The notes beneath the pieces are model-generated. The model ran no database searches. It saw only the letters and a program-made list of their open reading frames with translations, and was not told the DNA's origin. Shown here piece by piece: positions 1-64,000 of a stretch of DNA of 64,000 nucleotides. The stretch comes from Thermodesulfobacteriota bacterium (GTDB taxonomy: Bacteria; Desulfobacterota; Binatia; Bin18), in assembly GCA_964291405.2 (NCBI GenBank), contig OZ219926.1, positions 1,344,001 to 1,408,000 of the forward strand, written 5' to 3'. Both the position numbers and the translations under genes were made by a program. The first letter of the stretch is position 1. Every line of letters begins with the position of its first letter.

Positions 1-96
1 ACGGAAACGGTCCCTTTGTGTCATTTGGCCCGTTGTGCACGGCTTCCCGTTGGGACCGACGTGATCGGTCCCCTACTCTTTCATTCACCACGCGAT

Positions 97-1239
97 TTAT
101 CTCAGCCCCCGGAAGCAGGTGCGCACCTCGCGTAGATACGACTCGGGTTGTTCGAACGCGGCAAAATGGCCGCCCTTGTCGAGTTCGTTGAAGTACACCA
201 CGTTCGCGAAGCGCTTCTCGGCCAAGCGTCTGGAGGTGTGAAAGATTTCCTTGGGGAAGATGGAGCATCCGACGGGGACGTTGACCGGATCCTGCCGGGC
301 GAATGCCTCGTTGAAGCTCTCCCAATACAGTCGTGCAGAAGATGTGGCGGTCGCCGGCAACCAATACAGCATCACGTTGTCGAGCAGCTCATCCCGCGTA
401 ACAACGTTCTCCGGATGGCCATCGCAGTCCATCCACGACCAGAACTTCTCGATAATCCAGGCCGCTTGTCCGGCGGGGGAATCGGTCAGACCATACCCGA
501 CCGTTTGCGGCCGGGTGCTTTGCTGCTTGGAATAGCCGGAGTCCCAGTCGTTGTAATACTTCATTTTTTCGAGCGCCGATTTTTCCTGTTCCGTCAAATC
601 GTCCATCGTCGGATCGGGCATCGCCAGCACGAGGTTCATGTGAATGCCGAGGCAATTGTCTGGATCCTGCACGCCGATGTACATCGTCACCACCGCGCCC
701 CAATCGCCGCCCTGGGCAGCGTAGCGCGTATAGCCGAGCCGCTGCATCAACTGCGACCAGGCGCGTGCAATGCGTTGCACCTTCCATCCGGTGCGTGACG
801 GCTTATCGGAGAATCCGTAGCCCGGCAGCGACGGGGCAACCACGTGAAATGCGTCGGCAGCATCGCCCCCGAACGCGGTCGGATTTGTCAGCGGCTCGAT
901 GACTTTATGGAACTCGACGATCGATCCCGGCCAGCCGTGCGAAATCACCAGCGGCATCGCATCAGGATGCGGCGAGCGAGCGTGAATGAAATGAATCCCC
1001 AGTCCGTCGATCGTGGTCCGGAACTGCGGAAAGCGATTGAGCTGCTCCTCGCGCGCCCGCCAGTCGTATTGTTCGAGCCAGTATTGGCACAGCTCCTGCG
1101 TGTAACTGAGCGGGATACCCTGGGTCCAGTCGTCCACACATTCCGGCTCGGGCCAACGGGTGTTGCGCAGCCGCTGGTTGAGGTCGTCGAGCTGCGCGTC
1201 AGTTGCCGCAATGCGAAAAGGTTCGATATGATCACTCAT
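97..1239 (-). CDS. Epoxide hydrolase (EHN domain + alpha/beta hydrolase)
   Basis: N-terminal 'IEPFRIA..LDDLNQRLRNTRWP', HGWPGS, nucleophile GGDWG, C-terminal GGHFAAFEQP. Confidence 0.93.
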   Translation of the reverse strand: MSDHIEPFRIAATDAQLDDLNQRLRNTRWPEPECVDDWTQGIPLSYTQELCQYWLEQYDWRAREEQLNRFPQFRTTIDGLGIHFIHARSPHPDAMPLVISHGWPGSIVEFHKVIEPLTNPTAFGGDAADAFHVVAPSLPGYGFSDKPSRTGWKVQRIARAWSQLMQRLGYTRYAAQGGDWGAVVTMYIGVQDPDNCLGIHMNLVLAMPDPTMDDLTEQEKSALEKMKYYNDWDSGYSKQQSTRPQTVGYGLTDSPAGQAAWIIEKFWSWMDCDGHPENVVTRDELLDNVMLYWLPATATSSARLYWESFNEAFARQDPVNVPVGCSIFPKEIFHTSRRLAEKRFANVVYFNELDKGGHFAAFEQPESYLREVRTCFRGLR

Positions 1240-1288
1240 GAATTGCCATCCTTCCGATCATGGGTTTACAGCCAGCAGTCATCATAGG

Positions 1289-1357
1289 ATGCCTTTACGT
1301 ACCACAGACTCAGATCAGAATCATCGGTTTCCACCCGCAACCATTAGCGACCAGTGA
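1289..1357 (+). mobile_element. IS6-family transposase 5' remnant
   Basis: Translates MPLRTTDSDQNHRFPPATISDQ*, like the IS6 N-terminus (Y-x-x-HRFPPEIISxA); shares AATCATCGGTTTCCACCCG and CGTACCACA with the remnant at 24243-24369 (opposite strand). Confidence 0.7.
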
Positions 1358-1547
1358 CAACAAGGCTTGACAAAATCAATGAAACGAGAAGATATGGCAC
1401 CAGCTTTTTTTGAGATACCGGGGCATTTTCCTATCGGGATAGACTGCCGGTGAGGTGGCCGCACACTCACTCGTTTCCCATTAGGGCACTGGCTTCTCCT
1501 TCATTGGCATTTTCCTGGAAGACGCTCGGAAAGGGGAGGGAAATCAT

Positions 1548-2072
1548 ATGAGTGACACGATCGACGATCTGGTGGCGCGTCTGACACGCCTGGAAGACCT
1601 CGAAGCCATTCGGCATACGTGGCGGGACTATTGCATGCGACTGGATTCTGCGGATTGGAGTGCGCTCGGTGATGTGTTCACCGAGGACGCCGTCCTCGAG
1701 ATGGATGGACTGGACCATCTGATCGAGGGACTAGATGGTCAGTATTGCGGCCGACAGACGATCATCAACGACTTCTATCGGCAGACCGGGTCTGTGCTTC
1801 CGCACGGCGCCAAGCCACTGTTCGTCACCGGTCATCTCAGCACAAACATGCAGATCGAGCTCCAGGGCGACGAGGCCACCACGCTCGCGTACTTTTTCGA
1901 GATCGTCGCGAACGATCGGGTGTTGATCGGGACGTATCAACATCGACTCCGTCGCGAAGCGGATCGCTGGCGGTTTCGCTTCTTGCGCATCGCGATTCGG
2001 TATCGGGCTCGGCTGGAAGCCACGGACGTAGGCGGCCAATCGCTGAACGACATCCTCGCACGTCCGGTCTAG
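1548..2072 (+). CDS. SnoaL-like/NTF2-family protein
   Basis: 'RLTRLEDLEAIR..YC..LD..DW..L..VFTEDA', 'GTYQHRLRREADRWRF'; RBS GGAGG. Confidence 0.85.
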   Translation: MSDTIDDLVARLTRLEDLEAIRHTWRDYCMRLDSADWSALGDVFTEDAVLEMDGLDHLIEGLDGQYCGRQTIINDFYRQTGSVLPHGAKPLFVTGHLSTNMQIELQGDEATTLAYFFEIVANDRVLIGTYQHRLRREADRWRFRFLRIAIRYRARLEATDVGGQSLNDILARPV

Positions 2073-2156
2073 CTTATCGCTGGTCGTCCTCCTGAACTCT
2101 TGCGTCCGCTGGACAGGGTGTGAAAGAACCACGGAGAGAAAAACAAGGAGGAAGAG

Positions 2157-3230
2157 ATGGCAGACCCACAGTTTGACCAGGCAAGAGCCGACGCCTTTTC
2201 CCAAAAGATGCTCGGCATCTTAAATGACGCGAGTGTGGCCCAGATGATAGTCATCGGCCACCAAGTCGGCCTGTTTGACACACTGGCCGGCTTAGCCCCC
2301 TCGACGAGTGAGCAGATTGCGGCGGCGAGTGACTTAAACGAACGCTACGTACGCGAGTGGCTCGGAGCCATGGTGACCGGCCGGATTGTAGACTATGACC
2401 CTGCCGGGAAAACCTACCGCCTCCCGCCTGAGCATGCCGCCGCCATCACTCGAGCGGCCGGCCCGAAGAACCTCGCGGCGCTGCTGCAAATGGTGCCAAT
2501 GGTGGCGAGAGTCCAGCAGGGCATCGTGGACAGTTTTCGCAATGGCGGCGGCGTGCCGTATTCAGCGTTCAGCGACTTCCATCAGCTGATGGCCGAGGTG
2601 AGTGGAGCCGTCCACGATGTGTCTCTCGTGAACACGACCCTGCCCCTCGTCTCCCAGCTGGTCGAGCGTTTACGCACGGGCATTGACGTCCTCGACGTCG
2701 GGTGTGGAAGTGGCCATGCGGTCAATCTCATGGCGCAAGCGTTTCCGCAGAGCCGCTTTACAGGCTATGACTTCTCGGAAGAAGGCGTCGCTGCGGGACG
2801 GGCGGAGGCGCAGGAGTGGGGGCTCACCAATACCCAGCTGGCCGTCAAGGATGCGGCCGAGCTCGACGAGGTCAGCCGCTACGACTTTATCACCGCCTTT
2901 GATTCTATCCACGACCAGGCGCATCCCCGCGCCGTGCTCAAGGGCATTGCCCAGGCCTTGCGGCCCGACGGCACGTTTTTGATGGTGGATGTGAACAGCT
3001 CGAGCAATTTGGAGGAGAACCTCGACCATATCCTGGGGCCGATGCTGTATAGCATCTCATGTATGCATTGAATGTCGGTCTCATTGGCCCTCCGGGGTGA
3101 GGGTCTCGGCGCGATGTGGGGCAGACACAAGGCTCAGGAGCTGTTGAGCGAAGCCGGCTTTACTCAGGTCACCATCAAGAATGTGGAACAGGATATGATG
3201 AATAACTACTACATCTGCACGAAGGGCTAG
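2157..3230 (+). CDS. Rv2258c-like winged-helix + class I SAM methyltransferase, putative selenoprotein (TGA 3069-3071 = residue 305, C-M-H-U)
   Basis: '[10 protein letters not shown]' N-terminal domain, [12 protein letters not shown] motif, FDSIHD; frame stays open past TGA as [17 protein letters not shown]...AGF...NNYYICTKG* (TAG 3228-3230), the normal family C-terminus. Confidence 0.85.
3074..3110 (+). promoter_or_regulatory. Putative bacterial SECIS hairpin
   Basis: Upper stem GGCCCTC(3086-3092)/GAGGGTC(3099-3105), loop CGGGGT with G at position 2, 21 nt after TGA; possible lower stem GTCGG/TCGGC. Confidence 0.6.
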
Positions 3231-7236: not shown

Positions 7237-7241
7237 GCGCC

Positions 7242-7520
7242 ATGATTCGCAGCTTTCGCCACAAGGGATTACGGCAGCTTTACCGGACGGGCAAGACTGC
7301 CGGGCTGAATCCCCAATGGTTGAAACGTTTGCGGGCCATCCTGGCGCGATTGGACGCCAGTACACGGCCCCAGGATATGGACCATCCGGGGTTACGGCTC
7401 CACCCGCTCAAGGGGGAGTGGGCCGGATTTTGGGCGGTCGAGGTATCGGGGAACTGGCGGGTGGTGTTTCGCTTTGAAGATGACGCCCCCAGCGACGTCG
7501 ATTTGATCGATTATCACTAG
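7242..7520 (+). CDS. higB: HigB toxin (RelE/ParE superfamily)
   Basis: 'MIRSFRHKGL...LHPLKG...W...VSGNWRVVFRF...VDLIDYH'. Confidence 0.92.
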   Translation: MIRSFRHKGLRQLYRTGKTAGLNPQWLKRLRAILARLDASTRPQDMDHPGLRLHPLKGEWAGFWAVEVSGNWRVVFRFEDDAPSDVDLIDYH

Positions 7521-7532
7521 GAGCAAAAGACC

Positions 7533-7826
7533 ATGGTAATGCATAATCCTCCCCATCCTGGCGAAACGATCCGGGAACTGTGCTTGGAACCTTTGGGCCT
7601 GACGGTGACGGCGGCGGCGGAAGGTCTGAGGGTCTCGCGGAAAGCCTTGTCTGAACTGCTGAACGGCCATAGCAGTATTTCTCCGAGTATGGCCGTTCGC
7701 TTAGAAAAGGCTTTTGGTGGGAGTGCGGAAAGCTGGCTGCGGCAGCAAATGCAGTATGATCTATGGCAGGTGCAAAAGCAGGCCGGGAAGATCAAGGTCA
7801 AACGCTTTGAGTTGCCCCCGGCCTAG
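7533..7826 (+). CDS. higA: HigA antitoxin (HTH)
   Basis: 'MHNPPHPGE...[23 protein letters not shown]...ISP.MA.RL.KAFG.S.ESWL..Q'. Confidence 0.92.
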
Positions 7827-12980: not shown

Positions 12981-13506
12981 GCGATAAATTCTCGGAGAAA
13001 ACGGATGCTACGCTATAGAGGCTATCGAGTCGAGCACCTGGATATCATCTTCACCGAAATCTTTCACCCTTCGTATAGGTCGAACCGTCTTCCTTTATGT
13101 ATCGACGAAGGCCGCCGTGCTCCGAGTAGTGGTTCACCTATTCCGGCGTTGGGGTCATCTCGGGCTGGAAGTGTGAGGCCAACGAGCCACTGTCCATCTC
13201 AATGAAGACATGGTACTCGCTTGGGACCCGATTCCCCGGGACCGAGCGGACCGATGTCCTCAACGCAGGTGCCTGTGACAGTGCAGATGTCGGCTTTGTC
13301 GCCATCTGGAACTGGGGGAATCTGGGGGGGGATGGGACCTACACGGCCATTGTCTACGATAACGCGGTGGAGTTTGCCCGCAGCACGTTTACGGCCACAA
13401 CGCTGGAGAGGCATTTGTGGAGGGGGCGAGCGGCAAGTGCACTATTGCGGATTTTCCGGCCTCTGGGGAGAGTGCGCGGTTTGCGTGGAATGAGAACTCG
13501 TGCTGG

Positions 13507-14109
13507 TTCTTGGCTCATCCGCGCCCTCCAGGGCACCAATGAGCTCGGTCCATGGACGACCTGGCTCCGATGCAGCATTATGACGCAGCGGTTATCCCAG
13601 ATCACCAGGTCACGGGACGTGTATCTGCCACCGCCGCCCGACCGGTCCAGAGCAGCTCGGCGATCCCGGCCAACCCCAGACCGGCGTGGCGGCTGACCAT
13701 GGCGGCCCGACCACCCGGCAGCTTTCCGTCAGTCGTATTGCCGAACGCAGCAGTCCCTGGGGATCGGCCCAATGATTTCGGGCAGGACTCCGTGCCATGG
13801 TCAACCGTGTACGGGCCTTCTCCCACAATGTGGCTGGCATGCCGACTTCTTTGGCTCGGGCTCGACAAAGAGTGAGTGCTTTCTGCGGATACCGTCTCTT
13901 CGATGAGCGTTGAAACTCCAGGCGAGTTATGAGCAGATATTTCAGGCACCTCATTCCACTGGCGGAGCGCCATCCGAAGCGGCCCGTTGTTTTTCGGATG
14001 TGGTTGAAGCCCCCAGCAATCCCGGCTCAGACTTTCAGGTTCGGCGGACGGGGGCGACGCGTTCAGGCGTCGCGTCATTAAATCGGCAGATTTACCGTGG
14101 CTGTACGCA
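13507..14109 (-). other. Interrupted/scrambled partial duplicate of adjacent tauD 3' half
   Basis: Exact colinear blocks 13507-13519=14346-14358, 13587-13613=14388-14414, 13817-13846=14502-14531, 14074-14109=14618-14653, separated by unrelated inserts. Confidence 0.8.
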
Positions 14110-19826: not shown

Positions 19827-19917
19827 GCAATGAAGGCCGTGGGACCGGGTGATACGGGCTCTTGCAAAGACAAACCCGGTGTGACACCATCGGCTATCTT
19901 TAACTGGAGGGCATGTT

Positions 19918-28170: not shown

Positions 28171-28326
28171 CCCCGAGATCGCTTCGGGCAGAGAGTATCA
28201 GCAAAGCTGAGAAAGGGAAATTTTCTAAACCTGAAGAAACATGCAACGTCTCTCATTTTCTTGGGCTTATTGAATTAACGGCACCAACGCACGTGGGATA
28301 GTCCTTGACCCCCAATGCATGCTGTT

Positions 28327-41425: not shown

Positions 41426-41524
41426 CGAGTAGGGTTACAACTGCCCTGCTCATACCCGCGACATAGGCCGCCCTGCTTTCGGCACTCAGTACCAAGCCGG
41501 TCGATACACAGCTCAGAACAAACG

Positions 41525-44902: not shown

Positions 44903-44919
44903 GGGTACTCCTCCTTCTG

Positions 44920-45194
44920 TCCTTTTTGCGTTCTGCCAAACCATCGTCATCACCGGCATGGCAACTAACTACTGTTGCATGACGACATCCATCGACACTT
45001 TTAATCGTGATTACGACGTGATCTTCGTCGACGATCTCAATTGCACGATAGCTTCGAGCGACGGGACAGACGCCGCGACGATGCACCGCATCACGGTTGA
45101 GACGCTGAAGGACGGCTTCATCTCCGAGTTGGTTACCGCCGACGATCTCCTAGCGCGGCTCGACGCCGACACCGAAACACGCGCTGCCGTCTGA
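44920..45194 (+). pseudogene. 3' fragment of isochorismatase-family gene
   Basis: 'TIVITGMATNYCC.TT..D.F.RDY.V..V.D'. Confidence 0.72.
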
Positions 45195-46832: not shown

Positions 46833-46987
46833 CTCTCCCCCTTTTGAATCTGAGTTGACATTCGAGTTTTGGGCCATCTCGCGCTCATGCCGAAGCAGAC
46901 AGGATAAGCCTAAACCTGCCCATCGCTTGCCGTCAAGCGCTGCCATAAATTAGGTTTTCGTTGACGAGAAATAGCGGCAAAATCAAC

Positions 46988-47053
46988 CTATCCAACCAAG
47001 CCATATGGAAAGATCGGAAAGCGGTATCTCTCCGCGATGGACGATCCGGGCCT
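46988..47053. repeat. Internal piece of the 29615-29730 element plus 18-bp motif repeated at 47838
   Basis: CTATCCAACCAAGCCATATGGAAAGATC (1 mismatch to 29637-29664); GATGGACGATCCGGGCCT vs GATGGACGATCCGAGCCT. Confidence 0.7.
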
Positions 47054-47837: not shown

Positions 47838-47879
47838 GATGGACGATCCGAGCCTAGGGAAATAGGGTCAGACTCGACT
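47838..47879. repeat. Left end of the CAGACTCGACT element
   Basis: GGGAAATAGGGTCAGACTCGACT vs GGGAAAGTAGAGCCAGACTCGACT at 29615. Confidence 0.65.
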
Positions 47880-47939
47880 TATCTCTCTACAGTTCCTTAA
47901 CTATCATTACCCGACTCTGCCCCAACGCAGATATTCAAC

Positions 47940-48994: not shown

Positions 48995-49290
48995 TTACCC
49001 ACAGACGTTTTGATTGAGATGATCGCGGAGTGTGTCGCCGGTGTATTCGCGCCGGTGCCGCCCGCGCTTCTGCAAGATGGGGACGACTTCGTCGACAAAT
49101 TCTTTGAAGTTGTTCGGCATGACTGTCGGTGTGAGGTTAAAGCCGTCACCACCGGTTTCATCGAGTATGGCTTCCATCTGGTCAGCAACTTGTTCAGGCG
49201 TCCCGACAAGCTGCGGGCAGCCAATCGTTGCCCCGTAGATTTTCCCGACTTCGCGCATGGTCAGTTTGTCTTTGCCCAAGTCGCCGGCCT
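48995..49290 (-). pseudogene. 3' fragment of NtaA/DmoA-type FMN monooxygenase
   Basis: 'VGTPEQVADQME......GDGFN..P......F..FVDEVVP.LQ.RG..R.EY.G.TLR.HL'. Confidence 0.8.
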
Positions 49291-49292
49291 TA

Positions 49293-49516
49293 TACGCGGT
49301 TGTTGGTCTGACGAAAACGGCTGCGCTGGAATACGCCAAGGCCGGCATTCGGGTCAATGCCGTGTGTCCCGGGGCGATTGACACGCCCATGATCGCGCGC
49401 AGCGCGCAAGCCATCCCCGGTTTTGATGAACTCGCCGTCGCCATGGAACCTGTTGGCCGTTTTGGCCAGTCGTCGGAAATCGGGGAAGCCGTCGCGTGGC
49501 TGTGTTCCGATGCGGC
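49293..49516 (+). pseudogene. Internal 3' fragment of an SDR gene
   Basis: 'AVVGLTKTAALEYA..GIRVNAVCPG.IDTPM...P.GR.G...EI..AV.WLCSD.A'. Confidence 0.8.
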
Positions 49517-49683
49517 ATTGCCGACCCAGGAGTTATTCTTTCCGCAACTGCTCGCCAGTCCCGATGTGATCGCCCTCGTCGCTGAGGAAGGGGAGACGCC
49601 CCGTGGGAGAGCGGGTAGCAGGAGAGGGTTGCGCTGTGTTAAAGACAGAACGTGTTAAAGACGGAACATAAGGAGGGGACATA

Positions 49684-50829
49684 ATGGCGATCTATCCGGT
49701 GATATCGTCAGATGACCATGTGTTTGAGCCAGCGGATTTGTGGACGAGTCGGCTCGATAAGCCATTCCGCGATCGCGCACCCCACGTGATTCATCGCGAC
49801 GAGGATGACACCGACTGGTGGGTATGCGACGGCCTCGTGGGCCTCAGCGGCGGGTCAGGTGGTTCACTGTTGGGCAAGCGCTTTGATGAATCGCCCGACA
49901 AGCTGAGTTTTGCCGATAAGATCGAGAATGTCCGGCCCGGGGCGTATCTGCCCGAAGAACGCCTCAAAGATATGGATGCCGACGGCATCGACCTGGCGCT
50001 GGTGTATCCCACGCAAGGGCTGCTGCTGTACAGCGTGCCAGATAGCACCCTCCTCACCGCCTTATGCAAAGCCTACAACGACTGGCTCGTTGAGTTTTGT
50101 GGCGGGTCGGCGGGCCGGATCAAAGGGATCGCGATGTTGGATATCGACGACATTGGGTCGGCGATCCGGGAGATCGAGCGGTGCGCGAAACTGGGTCTCG
50201 TCGGGGCGATGATTTCGGTGTATCCGGCCGAGGAGAACTCATACGATCGACCTGAATACGAGCCGTTCTGGTCGGCGGCGGAAGATTTACGTATGCCGCT
50301 CAGCCTCCATATTGTGACCAACCGGCCGGCCGCGCAGACCGGCCAAGGCGATGGGGCACTCCGGTCACTGGACGGGCCGATTGATTTCGCGGCCCTGGCG
50401 AATGCGGATCACTGGGTGCGGATGTCCTTAGCCCGAATGATTCTGAGTGGGGTCTTTGAACGCCATCCGCGGCTACAAGTCGGCTCGATTGAACAAGAAG
50501 TCTCGTGGGCGCCGCACTTCATCGAACGCCTCGACTACACCTATACGCAGCGCCCCCAAAGTGGCGGGTATCGGTTTGGGGAAGCGATGCTCCCCAGCGA
50601 TTACTTCCGTCGCAACGTCTTCATCAGCTTTCAAGAAGATGCGGTGGGCTTGCGGGAGCGGCAGTTCATTGGGGTGGACAATCTCCTGTGGGGGTCGGAC
50701 TATCCGCATGCCGAGTCGACGTTTCCGCGCTCGCAACAGATCCTGACGGAGATCTTGGCCGACTGCACGGAGGAGGAGAAGGCGAAGATCGTGGGTGGGA
50801 ACACGGCTCGCATTTACAACCTCGGCTAA
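49684..50829 (+). CDS. Amidohydrolase_2 family protein
   Basis: 'ISSDDHV.EP.DLW', 'D.D.DG....VYPT', 'GVFERHP.L....E', 'WGSDYPH.ESTFP'. Confidence 0.92.
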   Translation: MAIYPVISSDDHVFEPADLWTSRLDKPFRDRAPHVIHRDEDDTDWWVCDGLVGLSGGSGGSLLGKRFDESPDKLSFADKIENVRPGAYLPEERLKDMDADGIDLALVYPTQGLLLYSVPDSTLLTALCKAYNDWLVEFCGGSAGRIKGIAMLDIDDIGSAIREIERCAKLGLVGAMISVYPAEENSYDRPEYEPFWSAAEDLRMPLSLHIVTNRPAAQTGQGDGALRSLDGPIDFAALANADHWVRMSLARMILSGVFERHPRLQVGSIEQEVSWAPHFIERLDYTYTQRPQSGGYRFGEAMLPSDYFRRNVFISFQEDAVGLRERQFIGVDNLLWGSDYPHAESTFPRSQQILTEILADCTEEEKAKIVGGNTARIYNLG

Positions 50830-51229
50830 GGGATGATTAACAAAGACCAAGTAAGAGAGCAGGTGGAAGGAATTGTCTTATTTTTCTAAATTCCACAGTC
50901 TTTGTGGAAATAAGTCGGCTCTTTTCATCCACGGTAAGGAAGGAAAGAGACGGTCGTTTTCTTCCGCACCTTTGGAAAATCATAGGATCGTTGGATTTTA
51001 CCCCGTTGCTGATACTGCTGCCCAATTCAAAGAACACCTCATAGACTGTCGTCAAGGCAAGGTTTTACAAGCCTTCTCATGGCAGTTGAAGAATTCGGCA
51101 GCAGTATCCGTTGCTACGGCATGCCCCTCCTTGCCGCTGTGGAGCACGAAGCCAAGGCCCGAGGCGTGGTGAATGCGCACGAACGGGTACGCATCGTTCC
51201 AACTCTTCACGCCGCATTTTTTCCGGCTC

Positions 51230-51268
51230 TGCGGAAGGAGTCCCATGCGTCGAGTCTGACCCCATATA
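51230..51268. repeat. Right end of the CAGACTCGACT element
   Basis: TGCGGAAGGAGTCCCATGCGTCGAGTCTGACCCCATATA vs TGCGGAAGAAGTCCCATTAGTCGAGTCTGACCCCATATA at 29691-29729. Confidence 0.75.
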
Positions 51269-51286
51269 CCGCGAGTCACGCAAGAC

Positions 51287-52567: not shown

Positions 52568-52714
52568 GCAGTTCCTCCAGGTAAGGCCGGGCAGGGCCAG
52601 TTTGTAGGGTGATGGAGGAACCGGGGTTAGGGAAGTCGCGGCTGTTCCATGAATTTGTCGAGGCGTGTTGCCATACACCCTCAGGCGCGTTATGAACCCA
52701 GCGTAGAAATCGCA

Positions 52715-53380
52715 GTGGTACGACCTAAAAAAACAGCAAACTCACCTGACTACCGGGCCATCATCTGCGCCGTCGGCCAAGCCTTGTTCGCTGAGCGCGG
52801 TTTTGCCGGCACGACTATCCGCGAGATTGCCAAACAGGCGGGTGTCAATTCAGGCCTGCTGTACCACTATTACTCCAACAAAGAAACGCTGTATCTGTCG
52901 CTGCTGGAAACGGCCGTCAGCGAAATCGTCGTGCAAGTCGAAAACATTGCCACCGGTCCGGGCACCCCGGAGGAAAAAATCCACCAGATTGTCCAGGCGT
53001 GGCTCGCATACTACCAGGCCCATCCACAGAGTTTTCTCCTCATCCAGCGAGCAGTCAATGAACACAGTCCTGCAGCGCAAGCCCTAGCCCAACATTGGTT
53101 TTCGCGTTGCTTCACCGCCATTGACGCCATCACCACCGAAGGCGTCCAACACGGGCTTTTCAGACCGCTGCCGCCCGCCCTCTTGTCATTTGCCATTGAG
53201 GGGCTCCTAGAGCATGCCGTGCACATCCATAAGCTCATAGGGGGCATTAGCCCGGATCTGTCTGGTGCCTCCCTACTGGACGAACTGGCAAATCTGGTCC
53301 TCACCCTATTGCGGGCCGATACCCCCAAGCGAAGCGTTCCTGTTCGCCGTGGCAAGAAGCGCCTACCGAGGCCTCGCTGA
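52715..53380 (+). CDS. TetR/AcrR transcriptional regulator (start uncertain)
   Basis: 'LFAERGF.GTTIREIA..AGV..GLLYHYY..KE.LY'. Confidence 0.9.
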   Translation: MVRPKKTANSPDYRAIICAVGQALFAERGFAGTTIREIAKQAGVNSGLLYHYYSNKETLYLSLLETAVSEIVVQVENIATGPGTPEEKIHQIVQAWLAYYQAHPQSFLLIQRAVNEHSPAAQALAQHWFSRCFTAIDAITTEGVQHGLFRPLPPALLSFAIEGLLEHAVHIHKLIGGISPDLSGASLLDELANLVLTLLRADTPKRSVPVRRGKKRLPRPR

Positions 53381-53533: not shown

Positions 53534-53914
53534 GTGAACGAACAAGAGGTAGATAAAGTTATGGAGCTCGAGCGCGAAGCGTATCGGCTGTACCAGGCCG
53601 GAGATGTCGACGGGATGATAGACAAGATACTGACGGAGAACGCCCGAATATGTCCCCCCGGCTCCGAATCTATTGTCGGGAGAGAAAACCAACGGGTGCT
53701 ATTCAAGGAACTCGCCCAGATGGACGGCTTCGAGCTGTTCTGGGAACCCCTTGAGGCACAGGTGAGCGCGTCTCACGACATGGCATACGTGTATGGAGCG
53801 GTCAGATGGAAAATGCCGGGGAGCGCTGAAGAGGTGGGGAAGTATGTCTCTGTCTGGATGAAGGAGAACGGGGAATGGCGGAACGCCGTAGAAATCCGCA
53901 ATGCCAACGGCTAG
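53534..53914 (+). CDS. DUF4440/SnoaL-like NTF2 protein
   Basis: 'VS.S.DMAY..G........GKY..VW.K..GEW'; GTG start after AAGGAG. Confidence 0.82.
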   Translation: MNEQEVDKVMELEREAYRLYQAGDVDGMIDKILTENARICPPGSESIVGRENQRVLFKELAQMDGFELFWEPLEAQVSASHDMAYVYGAVRWKMPGSAEEVGKYVSVWMKENGEWRNAVEIRNANG

Positions 53915-53945
53915 AGGGACGACCGTCAGAGGAGGACCTCCGTGT

Positions 53946-54959
53946 ATGCCGAAACTGAAAGAAATTGGTATTGGCGTCGAGAACGTGAATGCCCGAGATT
54001 ACGTCGCCCAGGCCCAGGCCGCAGAGCGCTTGGGGTTCCACAGTTTCTGGGTGCCGGAGGACTGCGTTTTTCCGGGCGCCTTTAGCTCGGGCGCCGCTAT
54101 CGCAGCGGCGACCAGCCAGATTAAAATCGGCACCGGCGTCATCAACCCCTACACTCGTCACCCCGTCCTCATTGCCATGGAACTGGCCGCGCTGGACCAG
54201 CTCTCCGGCGGGCGGGCCATCCTTGGCCTGGGCGCAAGTATCCGGCTGTGGATTGAGGAGCAGATGGGCATCGACTATGCCAAGTCTCTGTCGGCCCTCA
54301 GAGACGCGGTGACCATCATCCGCCGGCTGCTGGCCGGTGGTGAGGTTGACTATCAGGGCCAGGTGTTTCGGGCGAGTGCCGGCATGCGATTGAATTTGGA
54401 GCCCGAGCGAACGGCAGTGCCGATTTACCTGGCCACGATGGCGCCCAAGGCGGTGGAGCTGACGGGCGAAATAGCGGACGGCTGGGTTCCGTTTGGCGCC
54501 GAGCCGGCGGCCGTGAGACGGGGCCTGGAGCACCTTCGCCGGGGCGCCGTGCGGGCGGGCCGCAGCCTGGCCGACTTCGACTACGGCGCCTTTCTGCTCA
54601 CGGCCGTGGCCGAGGATGACCGGGCGGCGCGGGAGGCCGTCAAGCCGGTGCTGGCGACGACCTTGGCGTGGATGGCGAACCAGCCCCAGCAGCCGATGTT
54701 CACCGATTACGGCCTGACCCCGGAGGACGCCGAGGTGATGCGGCAGAGCTACGCCCGCGGCGAACTCCGCCCGGACTTTGTGAGTGACGCCATGGTCGAT
54801 GAGCTGGTGCTGGCGGGCAGTCCGCAGCGCTGTCGGGAGCGGCTGGCCGCGCGGATCGAGGCGGGCCTGACGAGCGCGGTCTTTTTCATGGCGGGCGATC
54901 CGGAGTTTACCAGGAACCTGGAAGCGTTGTACCGGACGGTGATTCGCGACTTTATCTGA
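53946..54959 (+). CDS. LLM-class (Mer-like) oxidoreductase
   Basis: 'AE.LGF..FW..ED', 'IGTGV.NPYTRHP..IA.E.A.LD.LSGGR..LGLG', 'GE.ADG'. Confidence 0.9.
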   Translation: MPKLKEIGIGVENVNARDYVAQAQAAERLGFHSFWVPEDCVFPGAFSSGAAIAAATSQIKIGTGVINPYTRHPVLIAMELAALDQLSGGRAILGLGASIRLWIEEQMGIDYAKSLSALRDAVTIIRRLLAGGEVDYQGQVFRASAGMRLNLEPERTAVPIYLATMAPKAVELTGEIADGWVPFGAEPAAVRRGLEHLRRGAVRAGRSLADFDYGAFLLTAVAEDDRAAREAVKPVLATTLAWMANQPQQPMFTDYGLTPEDAEVMRQSYARGELRPDFVSDAMVDELVLAGSPQRCRERLAARIEAGLTSAVFFMAGDPEFTRNLEALYRTVIRDFI

Positions 54960-55071
54960 GCCCGGCGCAGCGCGGCAACGAGAAAATCTCACGGACAGCA
55001 CATGCGCTGGGGAGAGGCACGAACAACCGACCCGGGCCTTTGCGCGACGGTTTGGCCCACGAGAGGAGGTC

Positions 55072-55872
55072 ATGATGGATGCGGATATAGTACGGCAAAA
55101 AGCCGAAACCTTTGCCGCGCTGCACAGAGCGGGCGATCCCCTCATCCTGTTCAACTGTTGGGATGTTGCGACCGCGAAGCTGGCCGCGCGGGCGTTCCCG
55201 GCCGTGGCAACGAGCAGCGGCGCGGTGGCGATGGCCCAGGGATTCGAGGACGGCGAACGGATACCGCTCGATCTGGTCTTGTCGCTGATGGCGCGGATCG
55301 CCGGCGCGGTGGACTGTCCGGTCTCGGTCGATCTGGAGGCGGGCTACTCGGACGATCCCTTGGAGGTGGCGGAAACGGTCGAAAGGCTGATCGCGAGCGG
55401 CATTGTCGGCATTAACCTGGAGGACGGTCTGTCGCAGGGCAAGCGCGCGCTGGTGGCGCCAGACGCCCATGCGAGGAAGATCGAGGCCGTGCGCGGGGCG
55501 GCGGAGCGGACGGGCGTGCCGTTTTTCATCAACGCCCGGATCGACTCGTTTTTGCTCAAGATCGGCGACGCGCAAACCTGCTTTGACGAGACGCTAAACC
55601 GGGCCGCGGCCTACGCGTCGGCGGGCGCGAGCGGCATATTCGTCCCTTTTCTTTTTGACACAGACCTGATCGCCGACCTGGCTGCGCGCATAGCGCTGCC
55701 GCTCAACATCCTGGTGATGCCCACGGCGCCGCCGGTGGCCGCCCTGGCCGAGGCGGGCGTTGCGCGTATCAGCTGCGGCGCTTGGCCGATTGAGGCGTTA
55801 GCGCAGGCGTTTGGTGCGGCAGCGGTCGCTTTCGCGGACACAAAGGACTACGCGTCTGTCCTGGCCTCCTGA
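55072..55872 (+). CDS. Isocitrate lyase/PEP mutase family protein
   Basis: 'N.WD..TA', 'ATSS..VA...G..DGE', 'PVSVD.E.GY', 'G.NLEDG', 'NAR.D'. Confidence 0.9.
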   Translation: MMDADIVRQKAETFAALHRAGDPLILFNCWDVATAKLAARAFPAVATSSGAVAMAQGFEDGERIPLDLVLSLMARIAGAVDCPVSVDLEAGYSDDPLEVAETVERLIASGIVGINLEDGLSQGKRALVAPDAHARKIEAVRGAAERTGVPFFINARIDSFLLKIGDAQTCFDETLNRAAAYASAGASGIFVPFLFDTDLIADLAARIALPLNILVMPTAPPVAALAEAGVARISCGAWPIEALAQAFGAAAVAFADTKDYASVLAS

Positions 55873-55932
55873 AACGATGTATAAAACAGTTAGTGATATC
55901 ATTAGCATTCGAAGGAGCAGGAGGAGAACAGG

Positions 55933-56853
55933 ATGAACGAACAAGACACCAGTGCCCAGCGGTTCTCGGTCTCGATGCTTGGCCTTGGCTATATGGGCAG
56001 TGCCCTGGCGCGGGCGTTTCTCGCGCAGCAGCATGCGGTCACGGTGTGGAACCGCACGGCGAGCAAAGCCGAGCCCCTGGCCGAGGCAGGAGCCCAAGTG
56101 GCCGCATCGGTGGCCGAGGCCATCACCGCAAGCGACGTGACCGTCGTATGTGTCAGCGACTACCACGGGAGTGATGCCTTGCTGCGTACGGCAGAAATAG
56201 TCGGTCGACTCAAAGGGAAGACATTGGTCCAACTCACGACCGGTACCCCCGAGGAAGCACGGAGCGGCGCGGCCTGGGCAGCGGAGCATGGCGTCGCGTA
56301 TTTGGACGGGGCGATCATGGCGTCTCCGCTCGAGGTGGGCACGCCGGACGGCACCCTCCTGTATGCGGGACCGCAAGCCGCCTTTGACCGCTACAAACCT
56401 TTGTTGCTCAGCCTGGGTGGCAATTCGGTCTTTGTGGGAGAGAGTCCGGGCCATGCGGCTGCGCTTGAGGGCAGCCTGCTCTCCTTCCTGTACGCCAGCT
56501 GGATCGGCTTTCTGCACGGGGCGGCTCTGTGTGAATCCGAGGGGATGTCCATCGAGAGTTACCTCTCGGCGACCCTGCAAATGCTCACGGGTCTGCTGAC
56601 TCCCCTTGTGACAAGCGCCGCCGAGCTGGCCGGTCAGCGGAGCTACGCCAGTGCAGTCTCCTCGCTGAACGCGAATACAATCGCCCTGGAGCATATCGTC
56701 CAGTTTTGCGATGAGAACGGCGTGGACCGCGCCCTCCCAGCCTGTCTGGCGGGCGCCCTACAGCGGGCGGCCGCGGCGGGTCATGGGGAAAAAGACTTGG
56801 CCGCGGTGTTCGAGATTTTTCGGAAGAAGGACAGCGGGGGTGAGACGGATTAG
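55933..56853 (+). CDS. NAD(P)-dependent oxidoreductase, imine reductase/beta-HAD-like
   Basis: GLGYMG, VWNRT..KA, 'LVQLTTG.P..AR', 'YLDGAIM..P..VG'. Confidence 0.85.
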   Translation: MNEQDTSAQRFSVSMLGLGYMGSALARAFLAQQHAVTVWNRTASKAEPLAEAGAQVAASVAEAITASDVTVVCVSDYHGSDALLRTAEIVGRLKGKTLVQLTTGTPEEARSGAAWAAEHGVAYLDGAIMASPLEVGTPDGTLLYAGPQAAFDRYKPLLLSLGGNSVFVGESPGHAAALEGSLLSFLYASWIGFLHGAALCESEGMSIESYLSATLQMLTGLLTPLVTSAAELAGQRSYASAVSSLNANTIALEHIVQFCDENGVDRALPACLAGALQRAAAAGHGEKDLAAVFEIFRKKDSGGETD

Positions 56854-56965
56854 CCCTTCAGGAGACGAGACCGGCTGCGTACCGCGCAGCGGTTTCGTGC
56901 AAGGGCCGCTCTTGGGAAACAAACTCCCCCGACAGCCAGAGAATTTCAACAACCATGAAAGGAGA

Positions 56966-58357
56966 ATGGGTATGCGTAGGGCGCTCACACAAGCTGGAAC
57001 GGCTGGCCGAAAGAGAAGCACGGCGGTGTTCGTGCTCCTCTCGGCCTGTCTGTGGGCTGGTTCGGACTTAGTGGCTGATGAGCGTCCACACACCATCAGC
57101 AAAGACACCGTGCTCCAGTGGGTCAACCAGTACCAGGATGCCACGCCGGAGTTTCAGCCGGGCCAGACCCTCACCTTCGAGGACCTTGAAAAAGTGCGCC
57201 CCTTTCTGCCACCTGGGTTCTTCGACGAAGTCGCGTTTCCGGGTGTAACAATTGAGATTGCGTCGACCGGAGACTATGCCCCGCATCCCGTGTATCGTGC
57301 CGCCACTGAACGGTTTGCTGGTCAGACGCGCTTGACTGCAGACGGGGCGCTGGAAGGCTATGTGGCGGGTCAACCGTTCCTCAACGACAGCCTCGACCTC
57401 AAAGACCCGACAGCTGGCCTGAAGGTGGCCTGGAATTTGAACTTCCGCTGGCAGCACTATGGGCAGCGGGCGGAAAAATACTATATGGCGTTAATACGAC
57501 CCGGTGCAGGCCAAGCAGGGTCGAATACGGTCCCAGAGGGCTTCATCGGAGGCGGTGGGGAGCTCGACCGTCTCATGGTCGTACGTTTCCAGCGGGTCTA
57601 TTTTTCTCACTTGGCTATGCTCCCGGACAACAACTATACGCTACCGGCCCATGGCGCAGCAGAGGTTGAATACAAGGAGTACGATGAGTTTATCGAGCCG
57701 TATGATGTGCGGGGGCAGCGGTTCGTGGTCCAACGTGCCCGTGACCCCCACCTGACAGACCAAGCGTGGGCCTACGTCCCTGCGATGCGCAAGGTGCGGC
57801 GCCTCTCCACCGAAGAACGTGCCGACTCCTTTCTGGGGACCGAGATAACGTATGATGATTTCCTGGGGTACTCCGGGCGCATTGTGGAGCAGGACTGGAC
57901 GTTTCACGGTTGGAAAGATGTGCTCCACATCATGAATTCTCGTCATCCCCATGCTCATTTCTCCGGGCCGCGCGGCTGGGTGCCTAACGACCGGTGGGAG
58001 GTGCGCCGGTGTATCGTCCTGGAGCAGACCCCGAAAGATCCGAACCATCCCTACAGCAGCAAGCTCCTGTTTCTCGATGCGCAAACCTACCGCGCCACCA
58101 CGGTCCTCGCGTTTGACCGGGAGGGGAAATTGTGGAGAGTCTGGAACTATCAGAATTCCTGGTCCGAAGATGCCAAGGAGAAGCCAGAGGGCAACCACGG
58201 CACGTTCGTGGCACGCTTTCTGGGCCTGACGGGTATTGATGTCCAAAATCAACGGGCGACGCTCGTCACCATGGGGGAGATGGACTATCCCCAAGTGACG
58301 GTAGAAGAGGTGGAAGAGTTATATAACTTGAACCGGCTCACCGAAGGGAGACGCTAA
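56966..58357 (+). CDS. DUF1329 family exported protein (outer-membrane lipoprotein-sorting-like fold)
   Basis: Signal-like N-terminus, 'Y.AG.PF', 'D.AW.Y.P..R.VRR', 'F.G.....DD..G', 'HPYS...L..D', 'D..G.LW'. Confidence 0.8.
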   Translation: MGMRRALTQAGTAGRKRSTAVFVLLSACLWAGSDLVADERPHTISKDTVLQWVNQYQDATPEFQPGQTLTFEDLEKVRPFLPPGFFDEVAFPGVTIEIASTGDYAPHPVYRAATERFAGQTRLTADGALEGYVAGQPFLNDSLDLKDPTAGLKVAWNLNFRWQHYGQRAEKYYMALIRPGAGQAGSNTVPEGFIGGGGELDRLMVVRFQRVYFSHLAMLPDNNYTLPAHGAAEVEYKEYDEFIEPYDVRGQRFVVQRARDPHLTDQAWAYVPAMRKVRRLSTEERADSFLGTEITYDDFLGYSGRIVEQDWTFHGWKDVLHIMNSRHPHAHFSGPRGWVPNDRWEVRRCIVLEQTPKDPNHPYSSKLLFLDAQTYRATTVLAFDREGKLWRVWNYQNSWSEDAKEKPEGNHGTFVARFLGLTGIDVQNQRATLVTMGEMDYPQVTVEEVEELYNLNRLTEGRR

Positions 58358-62500: not shown

Positions 62501-62589
62501 ATTCTCTGCGCCTCTCCGGCTAACGGCTTGTCGCCTCACCAGGGCGTCTGCTTGTTGAGCCGGCTTCTTGGCGGGCTTCCACCAGCCTT

Positions 62590-62672
62590 GTAGGTCGGCT
62601 TACGCCTACGGCTAAGCCGACATGGCGGGGGCGGGGAGGAGTGTCGGATTACGCTTCGCTAATCCGACCTAC
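62590..62672. repeat. GTAG-type REP doublet (REPIN-like)
   Basis: GTAGGTCGGCTTACGCCTACGGCTAAGCCGACA and inverted TGTCGGATTACGCTTCGCTAATCCGACCTAC. Confidence 0.85.
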
Positions 62673-62738
62673 TGACTCATCGGTGAGAGCCACGGCTCCG
62701 TCTTCCAAATACTCAGCATCCAGATCGAAACGCCGCTT

Positions 62739-62780
62739 ATAGGCCACACGACCTGTGCGATAGGCCACACGACCTGTGCT
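62739..62780 (+). repeat. 21-bp tandem duplication
   Basis: ATAGGCCACACGACCTGTGC(G/T) x2. Confidence 0.85.
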
Positions 62781-63035
62781 GTGTCACAACTCGCGTACGG
62801 AGTGCCGCTTCATCACGGGTCAGAGCCTGCTCTCGGAGCCGTTGTACTCCCGTGCGTATCGTTGGACAAGCAGCGCCGCCTCCGTAAGCGTGGAATTGAG
62901 GCCACAGCCTTGCACTCGTCACGTTTGACAACTAAAGAAAACAGTGAGGGTCATACCACGGAATGAGGAGATCTTGGCTCTGAACTCACGTAGCGTGAGG
63001 GTAGATGCAGAGCGTTCTGAGGAGGATTTACGCGC

Positions 63036-63866
63036 ATGAGTTATATCGACGTCGTCGAGAAAATCGACGTGCCAAGACCGCACAAGCATTATACCGAGCC
63101 CCATTTTGAAGAGGTGCTTGGCCTTCCGATCGCGTATCGCCGCGAGGGGGCGGGCGAAGCGACGGTTTTGTTTCACGGGGCCGGCTTCACACGCATGTGG
63201 CTTCCATTCTATGCCATGCTTGCAGAAAAACTGGACTTCGTTGCCCCCGAGTGCCCCGGTTTTGGAGAAACGCCACTGCCGCAGTGGGTGCGTGGTTTCG
63301 ATGATCTCGCCATCCTCTATGACCAGTTGTTCGAGCAGCTTGGACTCTCCCACATCCACCTCATTGGCTTTTCGATGGGGGGCTGGGCAGCCGCCGAGTT
63401 CGCTTCGTTTTATCCACGCCGGCTCAAATCGCTCTCGCTCATCACCCCGGTTGGACTGCGTCTTGAAGACGATCCCGGAGTCGACATTTTTCAGCTCTCC
63501 CCACCCGAAGTCATGGACCGTCTATTCAAGGACAAGGACGTGATGCAGGAATGGTTACCGGACGGGGAGGATTTCGATGAAGGCATTCATATGTATAGTG
63601 AATTCTCTGCCGCGGCGCGCCTCATGTGGGCACCGCGTTACAACCTCAAGCTCGAACACCGCCTCCAGCGACTGACCTGTCCAACCCAGGTCATTGGGGC
63701 CGAAGAAGACCGCCTTGTCCCGAACGCCATGTCGGATAAATTTGCCGCAGTATTACCGAACTGCCGACTGATCCGCATCGCGGGCACCGGCCACGAACCA
63801 CTTTTGGAACGGCCGCGTGAACTCGCCGCTATTCTGACGGTTTTTATCGAGGAGGCGACACAATGA
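63036..63866 (+). CDS. Alpha/beta hydrolase
   Basis: HGAG, 'PE.PGFG', GFSMGG nucleophile, catalytic D and 'TGH.P..E.P'. Confidence 0.9.
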   Translation: MSYIDVVEKIDVPRPHKHYTEPHFEEVLGLPIAYRREGAGEATVLFHGAGFTRMWLPFYAMLAEKLDFVAPECPGFGETPLPQWVRGFDDLAILYDQLFEQLGLSHIHLIGFSMGGWAAAEFASFYPRRLKSLSLITPVGLRLEDDPGVDIFQLSPPEVMDRLFKDKDVMQEWLPDGEDFDEGIHMYSEFSAAARLMWAPRYNLKLEHRLQRLTCPTQVIGAEEDRLVPNAMSDKFAAVLPNCRLIRIAGTGHEPLLERPRELAAILTVFIEEATQ

Positions 63867-64000
63867 ACAAGCTGCGTTTTTATTTCTTTCACTTGATGCC
63901 CTACCCCCACATTCCGCCGGCGTCTGAAATCCAGTCAACCTGGGTGTCGTTGTCGAATAAGCATTATGACCCCCATCGCGGCCACTCGCTGTACAACGAA
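63863..64000 (+). CDS. LLM-class oxidoreductase, 5' part (runs off window)
   Basis: ATGA overlap with hydrolase; 'FYFFHLMPY.......S.WV...N..YDP..G..LYN'. Confidence 0.75.
   Translation, partial: MNKLRFYFFHLMPYPHIPPASEIQSTWVSLSNKHYDPHRGHSLYNE

Follow-up and report, generated by a model that had tools for sequence, protein, structure and literature searches.

The stretch analysed here, 64,000 nucleotides hereafter called the window, comes from a bacterial genome of 4.95 Mb in three contigs, where it takes up positions 1344001-1408000 of the main contig (4.90 Mb). It is probably the core part of a hypervariable island that has been long-lived and passed on vertically in a sponge-associated genus of Candidatus Binatia. 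The junctions of this island carry copies of a short element, EL, that would be relics of a REPIN, i.e., a pair of inverted repetitive extragenic palindromic (REP) sequences. The island is heritable, has a conserved backbone, and shows turnover both between species and within natural populations; its gene fragments derive from deletion, and EL lies at the junctions where modules have been exchanged. The atypical character of the region is real and better than chance, and the locus is a REPIN-relic version of the known flexible islands. The content of its modules mirrors the genome-wide paralogue expansions of the lineage, such as luciferase-like monooxygenases (LLM), amidohydrolase-2 proteins and short-chain dehydrogenases/reductases (SDR), and the island does not look like a selective trap for foreign enzymes.

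The sets of stand-alone enzymes, oxidative and hydrolytic, that sponge-associated Binatia carry are very large, and the origin and upkeep of this diversity is the wider question to which the locus speaks: with many closed genomes of one genus at hand, it is a comparable system in which modules are duplicated, exchanged, reshuffled and eroded at a fixed place. The guess of the first-pass annotation, which was made from the letters of the window alone, that the host is a Binatia-like sponge bacterium proved right: one protein encoded in the window, IlvD-like, shares 98-99% identity with copies in chromosomes of Candidatus Binatia metagenome-assembled genomes (MAGs), and the stretch is present in sequencing runs labelled sponge metagenome, with contigs of one of these (X3) aligning to the window.

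Architecture of the region

Open reading frames (ORFs) were called with a codon-usage scorer trained on the genome itself and annotated with Pfam and NCBIfam; the gaps between them were covered by within-genome blastx and by six-frame Pfam scans of 213 stop-to-stop ORFs. To obtain architecture percentiles, the same ORF caller was applied genome-wide in 64-kb windows with a 16-kb slide. On this scale the frequent strand switches reported earlier are genuine: there are 33 of them among the 71 ORFs of the window, which is the 99th percentile. The coding density of 0.809 falls at the 2.6th percentile, the median intergenic gap of 115 nt at the 99th and the median ORF length of 218 aa at the 6.6th, while the mean GC3 is ordinary (56th percentile). 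The GC content is 57.4% in the window versus 57.8% in the genome, and both GC and GC3 equal the genome mean. The atypical zone extends beyond the window, over about 1.33-1.44 Mb of the chromosome, and includes the second and third most atypical 32-kb windows of the latter.

1..64000 (chromosome ~1.33-1.44 Mb), no strand: central 64 kb of a hypervariable island of ~110-140 kb; outlier architecture, with blocks that are mosaic and permuted relative to seven sister genomes

The locus does not fit the picture of a classical genomic island, which has a border tRNA or integrase, flanking direct repeats and foreign composition throughout. A search of the flanks for a tRNA or integrase, which had been proposed as a check, returned neither: no tRNA lies in the window or its flanks, the only one within 360 kb being a tRNA-Ala 116 kb downstream, and the recombinases of the genome are at least 290 kb from the EL array. 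An Rfam scan of the window at gathering thresholds gave 0 matches. Cumulative GC skew, examined for a link with the replication terminus, is flat from 1.2 to 3.0 Mb. A second zone of like architecture, with low coding density, short genes and many strand switches, occupies 4.24-4.37 Mb of the chromosome, and no other 32-kb window of the genome is as atypical as one that falls within it.

Conservation and turnover in sister species and populations

The comparison drew on 27 other species-level genomes of the genus, many of them closed. DNA of the window recurs as a mosaic in the ~5-Mb members of the genus, with an identity of 87-98%. The share of the window covered by blocks of 85% identity or more is 0.72 (G004), 0.68, 0.60, 0.48, 0.38, 0.29 and 0.11 (G013) in seven sister genomes. 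These blocks are 0.3-9 kb long; over the first ~28 kb they keep a colinear order, and further on they are permuted, duplicated or missing. Of three 20-kb control regions taken for comparison, one appears as an unbroken 20-kb block in three of the five sister genomes; the remaining two show gaps, in one case owing to an insertion-rich stretch, but stay colinear, with 88-96% identity. The divergence of the island blocks thus matches that of the controls, which counts against an origin from many donors.

All that G013, a genome of 3.8 Mb, has of the region is a colinear anchor backbone within ~20 kb, made up of the epoxide hydrolase gene, 18517-21188, 23299-24242, 26517-27747, 55921-56862 and later anchors; the anchor genes encode the epoxide hydrolase, the sulfotransferase and a CmcJ-like protein, a second CmcJ-like protein, the aminotransferase and a reductive-aminase-like protein. 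The principal anchors within the window are the following:

97..1239, minus strand: epoxide hydrolase, backbone anchor (Pfam EHN), present in six of seven sister islands, including the minimal one of G013
18642..21183, plus strand: sulfotransferase and CmcJ/NvfI-like oxidoreductase, backbone anchors (Pfam/NCBIfam), colinear in G013
26535..27614, minus strand: class-V aminotransferase-like anchor, bordering the EL array on its left (Pfam), present in all seven sister islands

The aminotransferase-like gene also adjoins the EL array in G005, G039, G011, G018, G001 and G006. In the more divergent G003, the epoxide hydrolase, a SnoaL_4 and an amidohydrolase gene stand in order on one contig, indicating that part of the island content is old and was lost in G013. 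The CmcJ/NvfI-like gene at 19861-21189 recurs 47 kb downstream in a second copy of 92.5% identity (chromosome 1410900-1412236), which is still within the extended island; both copies are also found in sister genomes.

An orthologue of at least 80% identity in one or more of the seven sister islands was recovered for 56 of the 71 ORFs: two are present in all seven islands, 32 in four to six and 22 in one to three, which leaves 15 in none. The block 39395-42435 is missing from all ten sister islands with which it was compared, and its MetE-like and cupin pair has a paralogous pair, 72-74% identical, at 4.12 Mb. At the other extreme stands one module with an unusually high identity across species:

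49520..51202, plus strand: amidohydrolase module, 99.3-99.5% identical in nucleotides to G004, G001 and G005, versus 87-98% for the other blocks

This module occupies different positions of the array in those three genomes, and together with its high identity this points to recent exchange between species; in one population variant 49296-51158 is gone. Turnover is also evident within populations, since coexisting variants skip 44391-44974, 40921-43014, 37476-45243 and 49295-51159. Contigs from three runs belonging to three studies bridge the island junctions, which are therefore not an assembly artefact, the chimeric assembly against which the earlier reading had to be checked. That the window is an island of small enzyme modules is upheld, and turnover in it is high, with module presence and order differing among congeneric species and in natural populations. 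Conserved synteny in relatives, which had been named as a possible refutation, holds for the backbone anchors and the first ~28 kb and fails for the modules beyond, which are permuted or missing.

EL and its relationship to REPINs

EL was defined with an nhmmer profile as an element of ~117 nt with perfect 14-nt inverted arms ~85 nt apart. Within its own genome it occurs only in the island, in one complete and three partial copies:

29615..29730, plus strand: complete EL copy, ~117 nt, REPIN-like, with 14-nt inverted arms GGGTCAGACTCGAC (repeat search, nhmmer)
46968..47035, plus strand: left half of EL (model positions 4-71; nhmmer); its left flank is common to EL copies of G001, G005 and G039, its right flank is not
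47857..47884, plus strand: isolated EL arm, a REP singlet (exact 14-mer; nhmmer)
51204..51269, plus strand: right half of EL (model positions 63-117; nhmmer); its right flank is common to G001, G011, G015 and G018, its left flank is not

The first repeat search had placed these at 29637-29737, 46988-47035 and 51230-51276, with an inverted arm at 47857-47882. As single-stranded DNA the element folds with a z-score of -4.06, and the stem formed by its arms is conserved in 15 copies with one compensatory change. Across the genus EL is found in 15 of 28 genomes, at one to eight copies each, and in every genome that bears it all copies share one strand and one locus, which spans at most ~23 kb. When 301 genomes of the class were drawn, 14 of the 49 from the family had it (own genome counted in, 13 of the 14 belonging to the genus); of 25 other genus genomes 13 had it, a sister genus had a single partial copy, and none of the 252 genomes of 19 other families had any. 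Within the genus it was not found in the small-genome members G013, G012, G016, G035, G003 and G009, nor in some of the 5-Mb ones.

The exact 19-nt motif of the EL arm was scanned across metagenome contigs and met at 36 loci, of which five are true ELs; elsewhere only arm matches of ~20-25 nt occur. At ten of the 36 loci the motif lies directly beside an ORF of the Y1_Tnp (IS200-like) family (12 of 36 ORFs tested are of this family, with 233-286 aa from stop to stop), and at locus L146 it is present on both sides of the Y1_Tnp gene. Because its arms match the REP motif that flanks these genes for REP-associated tyrosine transposases (RAYT), EL is best regarded as a REPIN-like relic. At L129, L146, L151 and L161, loci outside Binatia, the 19-nt motif forms tandem and inverted sets around RAYT genes, and the GC content of the contigs ranges from 0.40 to 0.66, which shows this RAYT/REP family to be widespread.

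The matching RAYT is degenerate or missing in most EL-bearing genomes. The genome under study retains only a 33% identical fragment of 113 aa, located elsewhere on its sequence; fragments of 46% identity are present in G039 and G017, inside the island or next to it, the copy of G014 is interrupted by an in-frame stop, and the only near full-length match (57%) is in the fragmentary G008. The intact IS6 or RAYT gene for which a search had been recommended was not encountered: that fragment is the genome's only match to this RAYT, and the genome has no IS6 homologue, although remnants of IS6 transposases are present in sister islands.

Other identities for EL were considered. Its arms lack the marks of an attC site: they read ...ACTCGAC / GTCGAGT..., with GAC/GTC in place of AAC/GTT, and form an unbroken 14-bp stem that has no R-spacer-L layout. 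Nor is it a miniature inverted-repeat transposable element of the IS6 of sister islands, whose ends (GGYAYYGTCAAC...) differ from the EL arms; an IS26/IS6-type array of translocatable units is likewise rejected, given these ends and the lack of an IS6 homologue in the genome under study. A search of five genomes for an integron integrase gave none above the TIGR02249 cut-off of 265 bits, the best match scoring 71.5 bits, a level that is also reached in control genomes. Tyrosine recombinases (PF00589) number three per genome, and in the genome under study all of them are at least 290 kb from the array. The first-pass annotation had called the content integron-like in the absence of an integron or attC; the missing integrase and attC triplet were confirmed, and what had been overlooked is the locus-specific junction repeat.

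EL at module borders

Gene-order maps of the EL-bearing islands show modules of one to four genes between ELs, in an order that differs among species. The median of 38 inter-EL distances is 2.2 kb, and 14 of these intervals contain exactly one gene. One module, with a Baeyer-Villiger monooxygenase gene, has at least four different left neighbours across species. Among the 1128 pairs that can be formed from 48 EL copies, 25 share both flanks, 37 the left flank only and 36 the right flank only, from which it follows that EL copies are sites where neighbours have been exchanged. Incomplete copies end at EL model positions 29, 42, 44, 67 and 71 or begin at 39, 41, 53, 63 and 76; the right part of EL moves with the right flank, and the switch point inside the element is variable. 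Relative to EL, both gene orientations occur (58 versus 82), and no target-site duplications were seen around 24 near-complete copies.

The mechanism that we consider the more plausible would begin with an anchor backbone that remains colinear genus-wide, between whose members modules of one to four genes are duplicated, permuted, deleted and occasionally imported. In the central part, at about 28-53 kb of the window, the modules are, or once were, separated by EL. Its copies would now mainly have a passive part, supplying the homology on which general (RecA-type) recombination or gene conversion acts, and as direct repeats would give rise to deletions, duplications and re-insertions. Illegitimate deletions would then erode both genes and ELs, producing the many fragments, and in the genome under study the array would be a heavily eroded one. 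On present evidence we think it fairly probable that EL-by-EL general recombination and gene conversion, combined with illegitimate erosion, acted in this way.

Several points weigh against this interpretation or limit it. Confinement of EL to a single locus in strictly one orientation is unexplained by ordinary REPIN biology. Many of the 48 EL copies are orthologous and not independent, so that fewer events lie behind the pair counts than these suggest. The homology of a module stops, in several instances, 40-250 nt from EL and not at it, so illegitimate recombination must also act, and EL may only mark intergenic hot spots; the part of RecA is one that we infer. Some genes look imported, among them the compositional outliers, a SnoaL_2 gene and the IlvD-like gene, whose product is 83% identical to proteins of Entotheonellaceae. 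The ORF caller is crude. The sister genomes were covered over 20-140 kb around the locus, so that a gene scored as absent from an island may sit elsewhere in that genome, and gain was told from loss by levels of identity rather than on a tree.

Alternative explanations

The explanation originally offered was that short pieces from many unrelated donors were captured serially, without a site-specific system, and trimmed on entry, making the island a catabolic analogue of a resistance island. Some of the evidence agrees with it: eight of 60 genes are compositional outliers, versus 4.8% expected, no orthologue of the SnoaL_2 gene was met among 150 genomes of the class, 15 of the 71 ORFs occur in none of the seven sister islands, the best matches of the IlvD-like protein outside the genus are in Entotheonellaceae (83%), and toxin-antitoxin (TA) loci and remnants of IS6 or Y1 transposases are scattered through the islands. 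Capture thus survives for a few genes that look foreign, such as SnoaL_2. It does not extend to the bulk of the region, where 52 of 60 genes are native in GC and have diverged like the control regions, 56 of the 71 ORFs are common to sister islands, the families are expanded genome-wide with close within-genome paralogues enriched, and a junction repeat exists after all. The idea of trimming on capture is contradicted by the fragments, which are intact at the same locus in sister species and hence were trimmed in place. We consider many-donor capture unlikely as an account of the island.

We assign about the same low probability to another possibility, in which EL would be the working site of a dedicated enzyme (XerC/D, or a RAYT-type HUH transposase that acts in trans) and the modules would be true cassettes which are excised and reinserted. 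This would accommodate the single orientation and single locus of EL per genome, the cassette-like sizes (with a median of 2.2 kb and 14 of 38 intervals holding exactly one gene), the occurrence of the same module beside different neighbours, the near-identity of the amidohydrolase module across species, the compensatory change in the arm stem, and the RAYT genes elsewhere that carry the same motif; moreover, as reported in PMC4889954, half of the known CALINs (attC-site clusters that have no integron integrase) are in genomes without IntI. Set against these are the absence of an integron integrase over the cut-off in five genomes, the mere three tyrosine recombinases per genome, all far off, the loss or decay of the matching RAYT in most EL-bearing genomes, the variable breakpoints and many half-copies of EL, the presence of genes on both strands relative to it, and the lack of visible target-site duplications. 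A narrower version, in which the EL array is the remains of a RAYT-type HUH cassette platform, or in some strains still is one, with REPIN-bounded modules moving as single strands, is in our estimate slightly less likely again; if true, it would mean that catabolic enzymes are shuffled and shared in sponge symbionts in an integron-like manner, independently of tyrosine-recombinase integrons. Very improbable is the view that the stretch is an ordinary one, whose oddities come from assembly errors, mis-binning and gene-calling noise. Indel errors do exist at 38812, 38856 and 38911, and the caller is crude; however, the same junctions appear in independent closed genomes and in contigs of three studies, the outlier statistics come from the same caller applied genome-wide, and GC and GC3 do not depart from the genome mean. 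As between the two roles of EL, a passive recombination substrate would make the locus an example of mobile-element relics structuring a flexible island, and an enzyme-driven site would make it a new kind of cassette system.

Comparison with known systems

As defined in PMC3116915 (Bertels and Rainey 2011), a REPIN consists of two inverted REPs with a spacer, REP singlets are decayed REPINs, and known REPINs reach tens to hundreds of copies across extragenic space. EL resembles the REPIN/RAYT systems described there and in PMC3337134 in its inverted arms and hairpin, its motif flanking Y1_Tnp, its half-copies that recall singlets, and the RAYT remnants beside the island; it differs in having at most eight copies, at one locus, co-oriented and at points of module exchange, with the RAYT mostly lost. 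Judged as a REPIN, therefore, it has the structure of two inverted arms in a hairpin and the association with RAYT, and it does not have the genome-wide dispersal.

In the account of PMC4889954, attC sites have R and L boxes, unpaired central spacers, extrahelical bases and a conserved AAC...GTT triplet, and a CALIN needs two or more attC sites that share a strand and are spaced by less than 4 kb. The EL repeats stand on one strand with a median spacing of 2.2 kb. Their array is similar to chromosomal integrons and CALINs in that structured same-strand repeats of ~120 nt, very similar within an array, lie between small modules, and the island as a whole resembles them in its interspersed TA modules, its shuffled order between relatives and the lack of an integrase nearby. 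The differences are the absence of IntI (in five genomes) and of an attC triplet or layout, the variable breakpoints, the presence of genes on both strands, and modules that often contain two to four genes.

The small accessory modules of Acinetobacter plasmids that are flanked by 28-bp XerC/D (dif) sites, as described in PMC13141974 and PMC6449649, are likewise shuffled at short repeats without a dedicated integrase; those are plasmid-borne 28-bp Xer sites, whereas this locus is chromosomal, and no Xer-like site was seen in EL, though no search aimed at one was made. The SAR202 bacteria, marine heterotrophs with expansions of flavin monooxygenase and other enzyme paralogues according to PMC6946804, share the very large LLM-type families, but they belong to another phylum and theirs is a diversification and not a recombining locus. 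Among Binatia sponge-symbiont papers none on this locus was found, as judged by title and abstract, nor any paper joining Binatota with integrons.

Flexible islands, or plasticity zones, in free-living as well as symbiotic bacteria keep a fixed position between anchors while their content varies, and they hold accessory enzymes, TA loci, pseudogenes and mobile-element debris. The present island agrees with them in its fixed position between conserved anchors, its content that varies among relatives, and its enzymes, TA loci and debris. It departs from them in having no border tRNA or integrase, in turning over by many small modules instead of one large replacement, and in possessing its own junction repeat.

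Gene fragments, UGA-containing genes and assembly errors

Six-frame Pfam scans, within-genome blastx and NCBIfam together confirmed ~11 gene fragments in the window, compared with the 12 or more junctions first said to carry cut-off genes; two genes taken as cut off turned out to have in-frame UGA codons, and one apparent frameshift to be an assembly error. The fragments include:

13040..14109, no strand: debris, with pieces of a 29-copy family of 271 aa and a decayed partial TauD duplicate (blastx, repeat search)
28327..28599, minus strand: DmmA-like fragment, 90 aa (Pfam profile positions 2-80 of 124); intact at 198 aa in G011
29753..30025, minus strand: C-terminal LLM remnant, 90 aa; orthologue of 357 aa with full Bac_luciferase domain in G039
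32576..33418, plus strand: LLM without C-terminus, 280 aa (Pfam profile positions 22-241 of 314); 316 aa in G002
41357..42079, plus strand: acyl-CoA dehydrogenase, N-terminal and middle domains only (Pfam), inside the block 39395-42435
44769..45191, plus strand: isochorismatase fragment (Pfam profile positions 114-160 of 175; blastx)
48995..49444, minus strand: C-terminal fragment of an NtaA/DmoA-type LLM, 149 aa (NCBIfam TIGR03860 positions 337-422 of 422); 446-520 aa in sister species
49239..49655, plus strand: C-terminal SDR fragment (Pfam adh_short_C2 positions 148-221); intact at 264 aa at the same position in G005 and G001
58499-58606: piece of 36 aa, counted among the ~11 fragments

To these are added the degraded higBA locus and the frameshifted tail of a rhodanese that has 583 aa in sister species. 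The truncation of the LLM at 32576-33418 is common to G001 and G004, and part of the SDR fragment (49294-49516) recurs at 99% identity as a piece of a different locus, 40 kb downstream. G004 lacks the sulfotransferase gene: 18569-19790 is deleted there and the last ~36 nt of the ORF are kept as a deletion scar. This scar, along with the intact state of the fragments at the same locus in sister species, shows that the fragments arose by deletion in place. G004 also has 21 nt in place of 13003-14289, around the debris, and 23 nt in place of 7178-7984, around the HigBA genes. By within-genome blastx the window has six fragment loci, four of them partial, whereas 20 random windows average 2.1, of which 1.0 partial; one of the 20 equals the window, so that by this measure the enrichment is modest. 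The 271-aa family, whose pieces lie at 13040-13557, has 29 paralogous hits in the genome and is possibly an uncharacterised mobile or multi-copy family; it has no match in Pfam, and no terminal inverted repeats were seen around a full copy.

Three apparently interrupted genes have other explanations:

2157..3230, plus strand: methyltransferase with one in-frame UGA; a single ORF when TGA is translated as U (U305, context CMHUMS)
31181..32521, plus strand: GrdB-like gene with one in-frame UGA (U212, context TPVUPLC; GRDB profile match)
37841..39155, minus strand: DAO-family oxidoreductase with an apparent frameshift (Pfam matches in two frames)

The first two, each a single ORF, are candidate selenoprotein genes as far as their reading frames tell, and G011, G018, G001, G015 and G002 have the GrdB-like gene in the same two parts. 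The frameshift in the DAO-family gene is an assembly indel error: contigs of runs X1, X2 and X3 add GG at 38812 and AA at 38856, and those of X1 and X2 also a C at 38911. At 43217 contigs of independent runs carry an extra C or CCC that is not in the assembly. The bases missing at these four positions are long-read indel errors that create false frameshifts, and they serve as a warning that the apparent gene fragments of such assemblies mix real deletions, selenoprotein genes and indel errors.

Gene content and composition

About 56 genes of the window could be assigned to families and are apparently intact, in agreement with the earlier figure of ~55 in small modules (the modules having one to four genes), and nearly all encode stand-alone enzymes. 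Most of the family counts were also upheld: there are five SnoaL/NTF2, three Amidohydro_2, three GFA (one weak) and three to four cupin genes, and two each for epoxide hydrolase, GST, RidA and CmcJ/NvfI. The LLM count was lower than the five genes and three fragments first reported, at four ORFs (one of them C-truncated) and two fragments. No transporter family was detected among the window genes with Pfam and NCBIfam, and there is one dedicated regulator, both as previously stated:

52649..53380, plus strand: TetR-family regulator, the only dedicated one (Pfam)

The recurrence of divergent family members, which had been taken as a mark of the island, proved to be so for three families only: SnoaL is enriched locally (top 0.2% of windows), as are epoxide hydrolase (1.3%) and GFA (2.6%). 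The genome as a whole has ~165 LLM, ~61 amidohydrolase-2 and ~60 SDR genes, and five or more LLM genes are present in 15% of its 64-kb windows; hence family recurrence in the window is mostly a genome-wide trait. Close within-genome paralogues (at least 65% identity) are about threefold more frequent in the window, at 10 of 60 genes versus 41 of 700 sampled genes (Fisher p=0.004).

Among the 60 window genes of at least 100 aa, 52 lie within two standard deviations of the genome in GC; the remaining eight exceed this limit, as do 4.8% of genes genome-wide, and the AT-rich and GC-rich segments singled out by the first-pass annotation are true compositional outliers. Two of the regions concerned are:

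42076..42435, plus strand: AT-rich SnoaL_2 gene, probably foreign (GC 0.442, z -4.0)
53901..58357, plus strand: GC-rich block with LLM, PEP-mutase-like, reductive-aminase-like and DUF1329 genes (Pfam, GC)

The best match of the SnoaL_2 protein among the 150 class genomes is 42% identical, and the absence of an orthologue from them suggests that a few genes such as this one are probably foreign. In the GC-rich block, the LLM and PEP-mutase genes are shared with G015 only, and the reductive-aminase-like gene is one of the G013 anchors.

Of the three TA loci that had been proposed, one is intact and one degraded; a third was not found by Pfam on the 213 gap ORFs or by tblastn with TA proteins of sister species:

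7242..7826, plus strand: intact HigB/HigA toxin-antitoxin module, variably present (Pfam), in two of seven sister islands
27769..28252, minus strand: degraded higBA remnant (partial HTH_3 and HigB profile matches; tblastn)

Expression and additional elements

One sponge metatranscriptome run (X15) has contigs on 16 of 30 bins of the window, e.g., at 33672-33940, 47414-47797 and 50345-50826. Since carry-over of DNA is possible, these are only a hint of expression, and the parts that the run leaves uncovered carry no information on it.

The IlvD/Edd-family dehydratase gene at 60818-62500 has its best matches outside the genus in MAGs of Entotheonellaceae, at 83% amino-acid identity, and those in other phyla are at 66-81%; on the strength of this sequence comparison it may have been exchanged among sponge symbionts. 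A segment of 662 nt at 59894-60555 is 97.6% identical to chromosome 4573084-4573745, and the ORFs there have no family match. A 37-nt inverted repeat, 97% complementary, at 43316-43352 and 44203-44239 surrounds most of an ectoine-synthase-like double-cupin gene, its left arm lying inside the 3' end of that gene; it could be an inverted partial duplication or delimit an invertible segment.

A further repeated element is present in the window:

41243..41423, no strand: multi-copy mobile element of 181 nt (blastn), one of six copies with mutual identities of 98.4-100%

Many degenerate pieces of this element exist besides the six copies, and in the metagenome its contig has a depth of ~1600 versus ~80 for its neighbours. 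The copy at 981889-982069 directly precedes a Y1_Tnp fragment (chromosome 982070-982402) and sits between 27-nt inverted copies of the end of the element, which is probably a second, currently active family of the REPIN or IS200 type.

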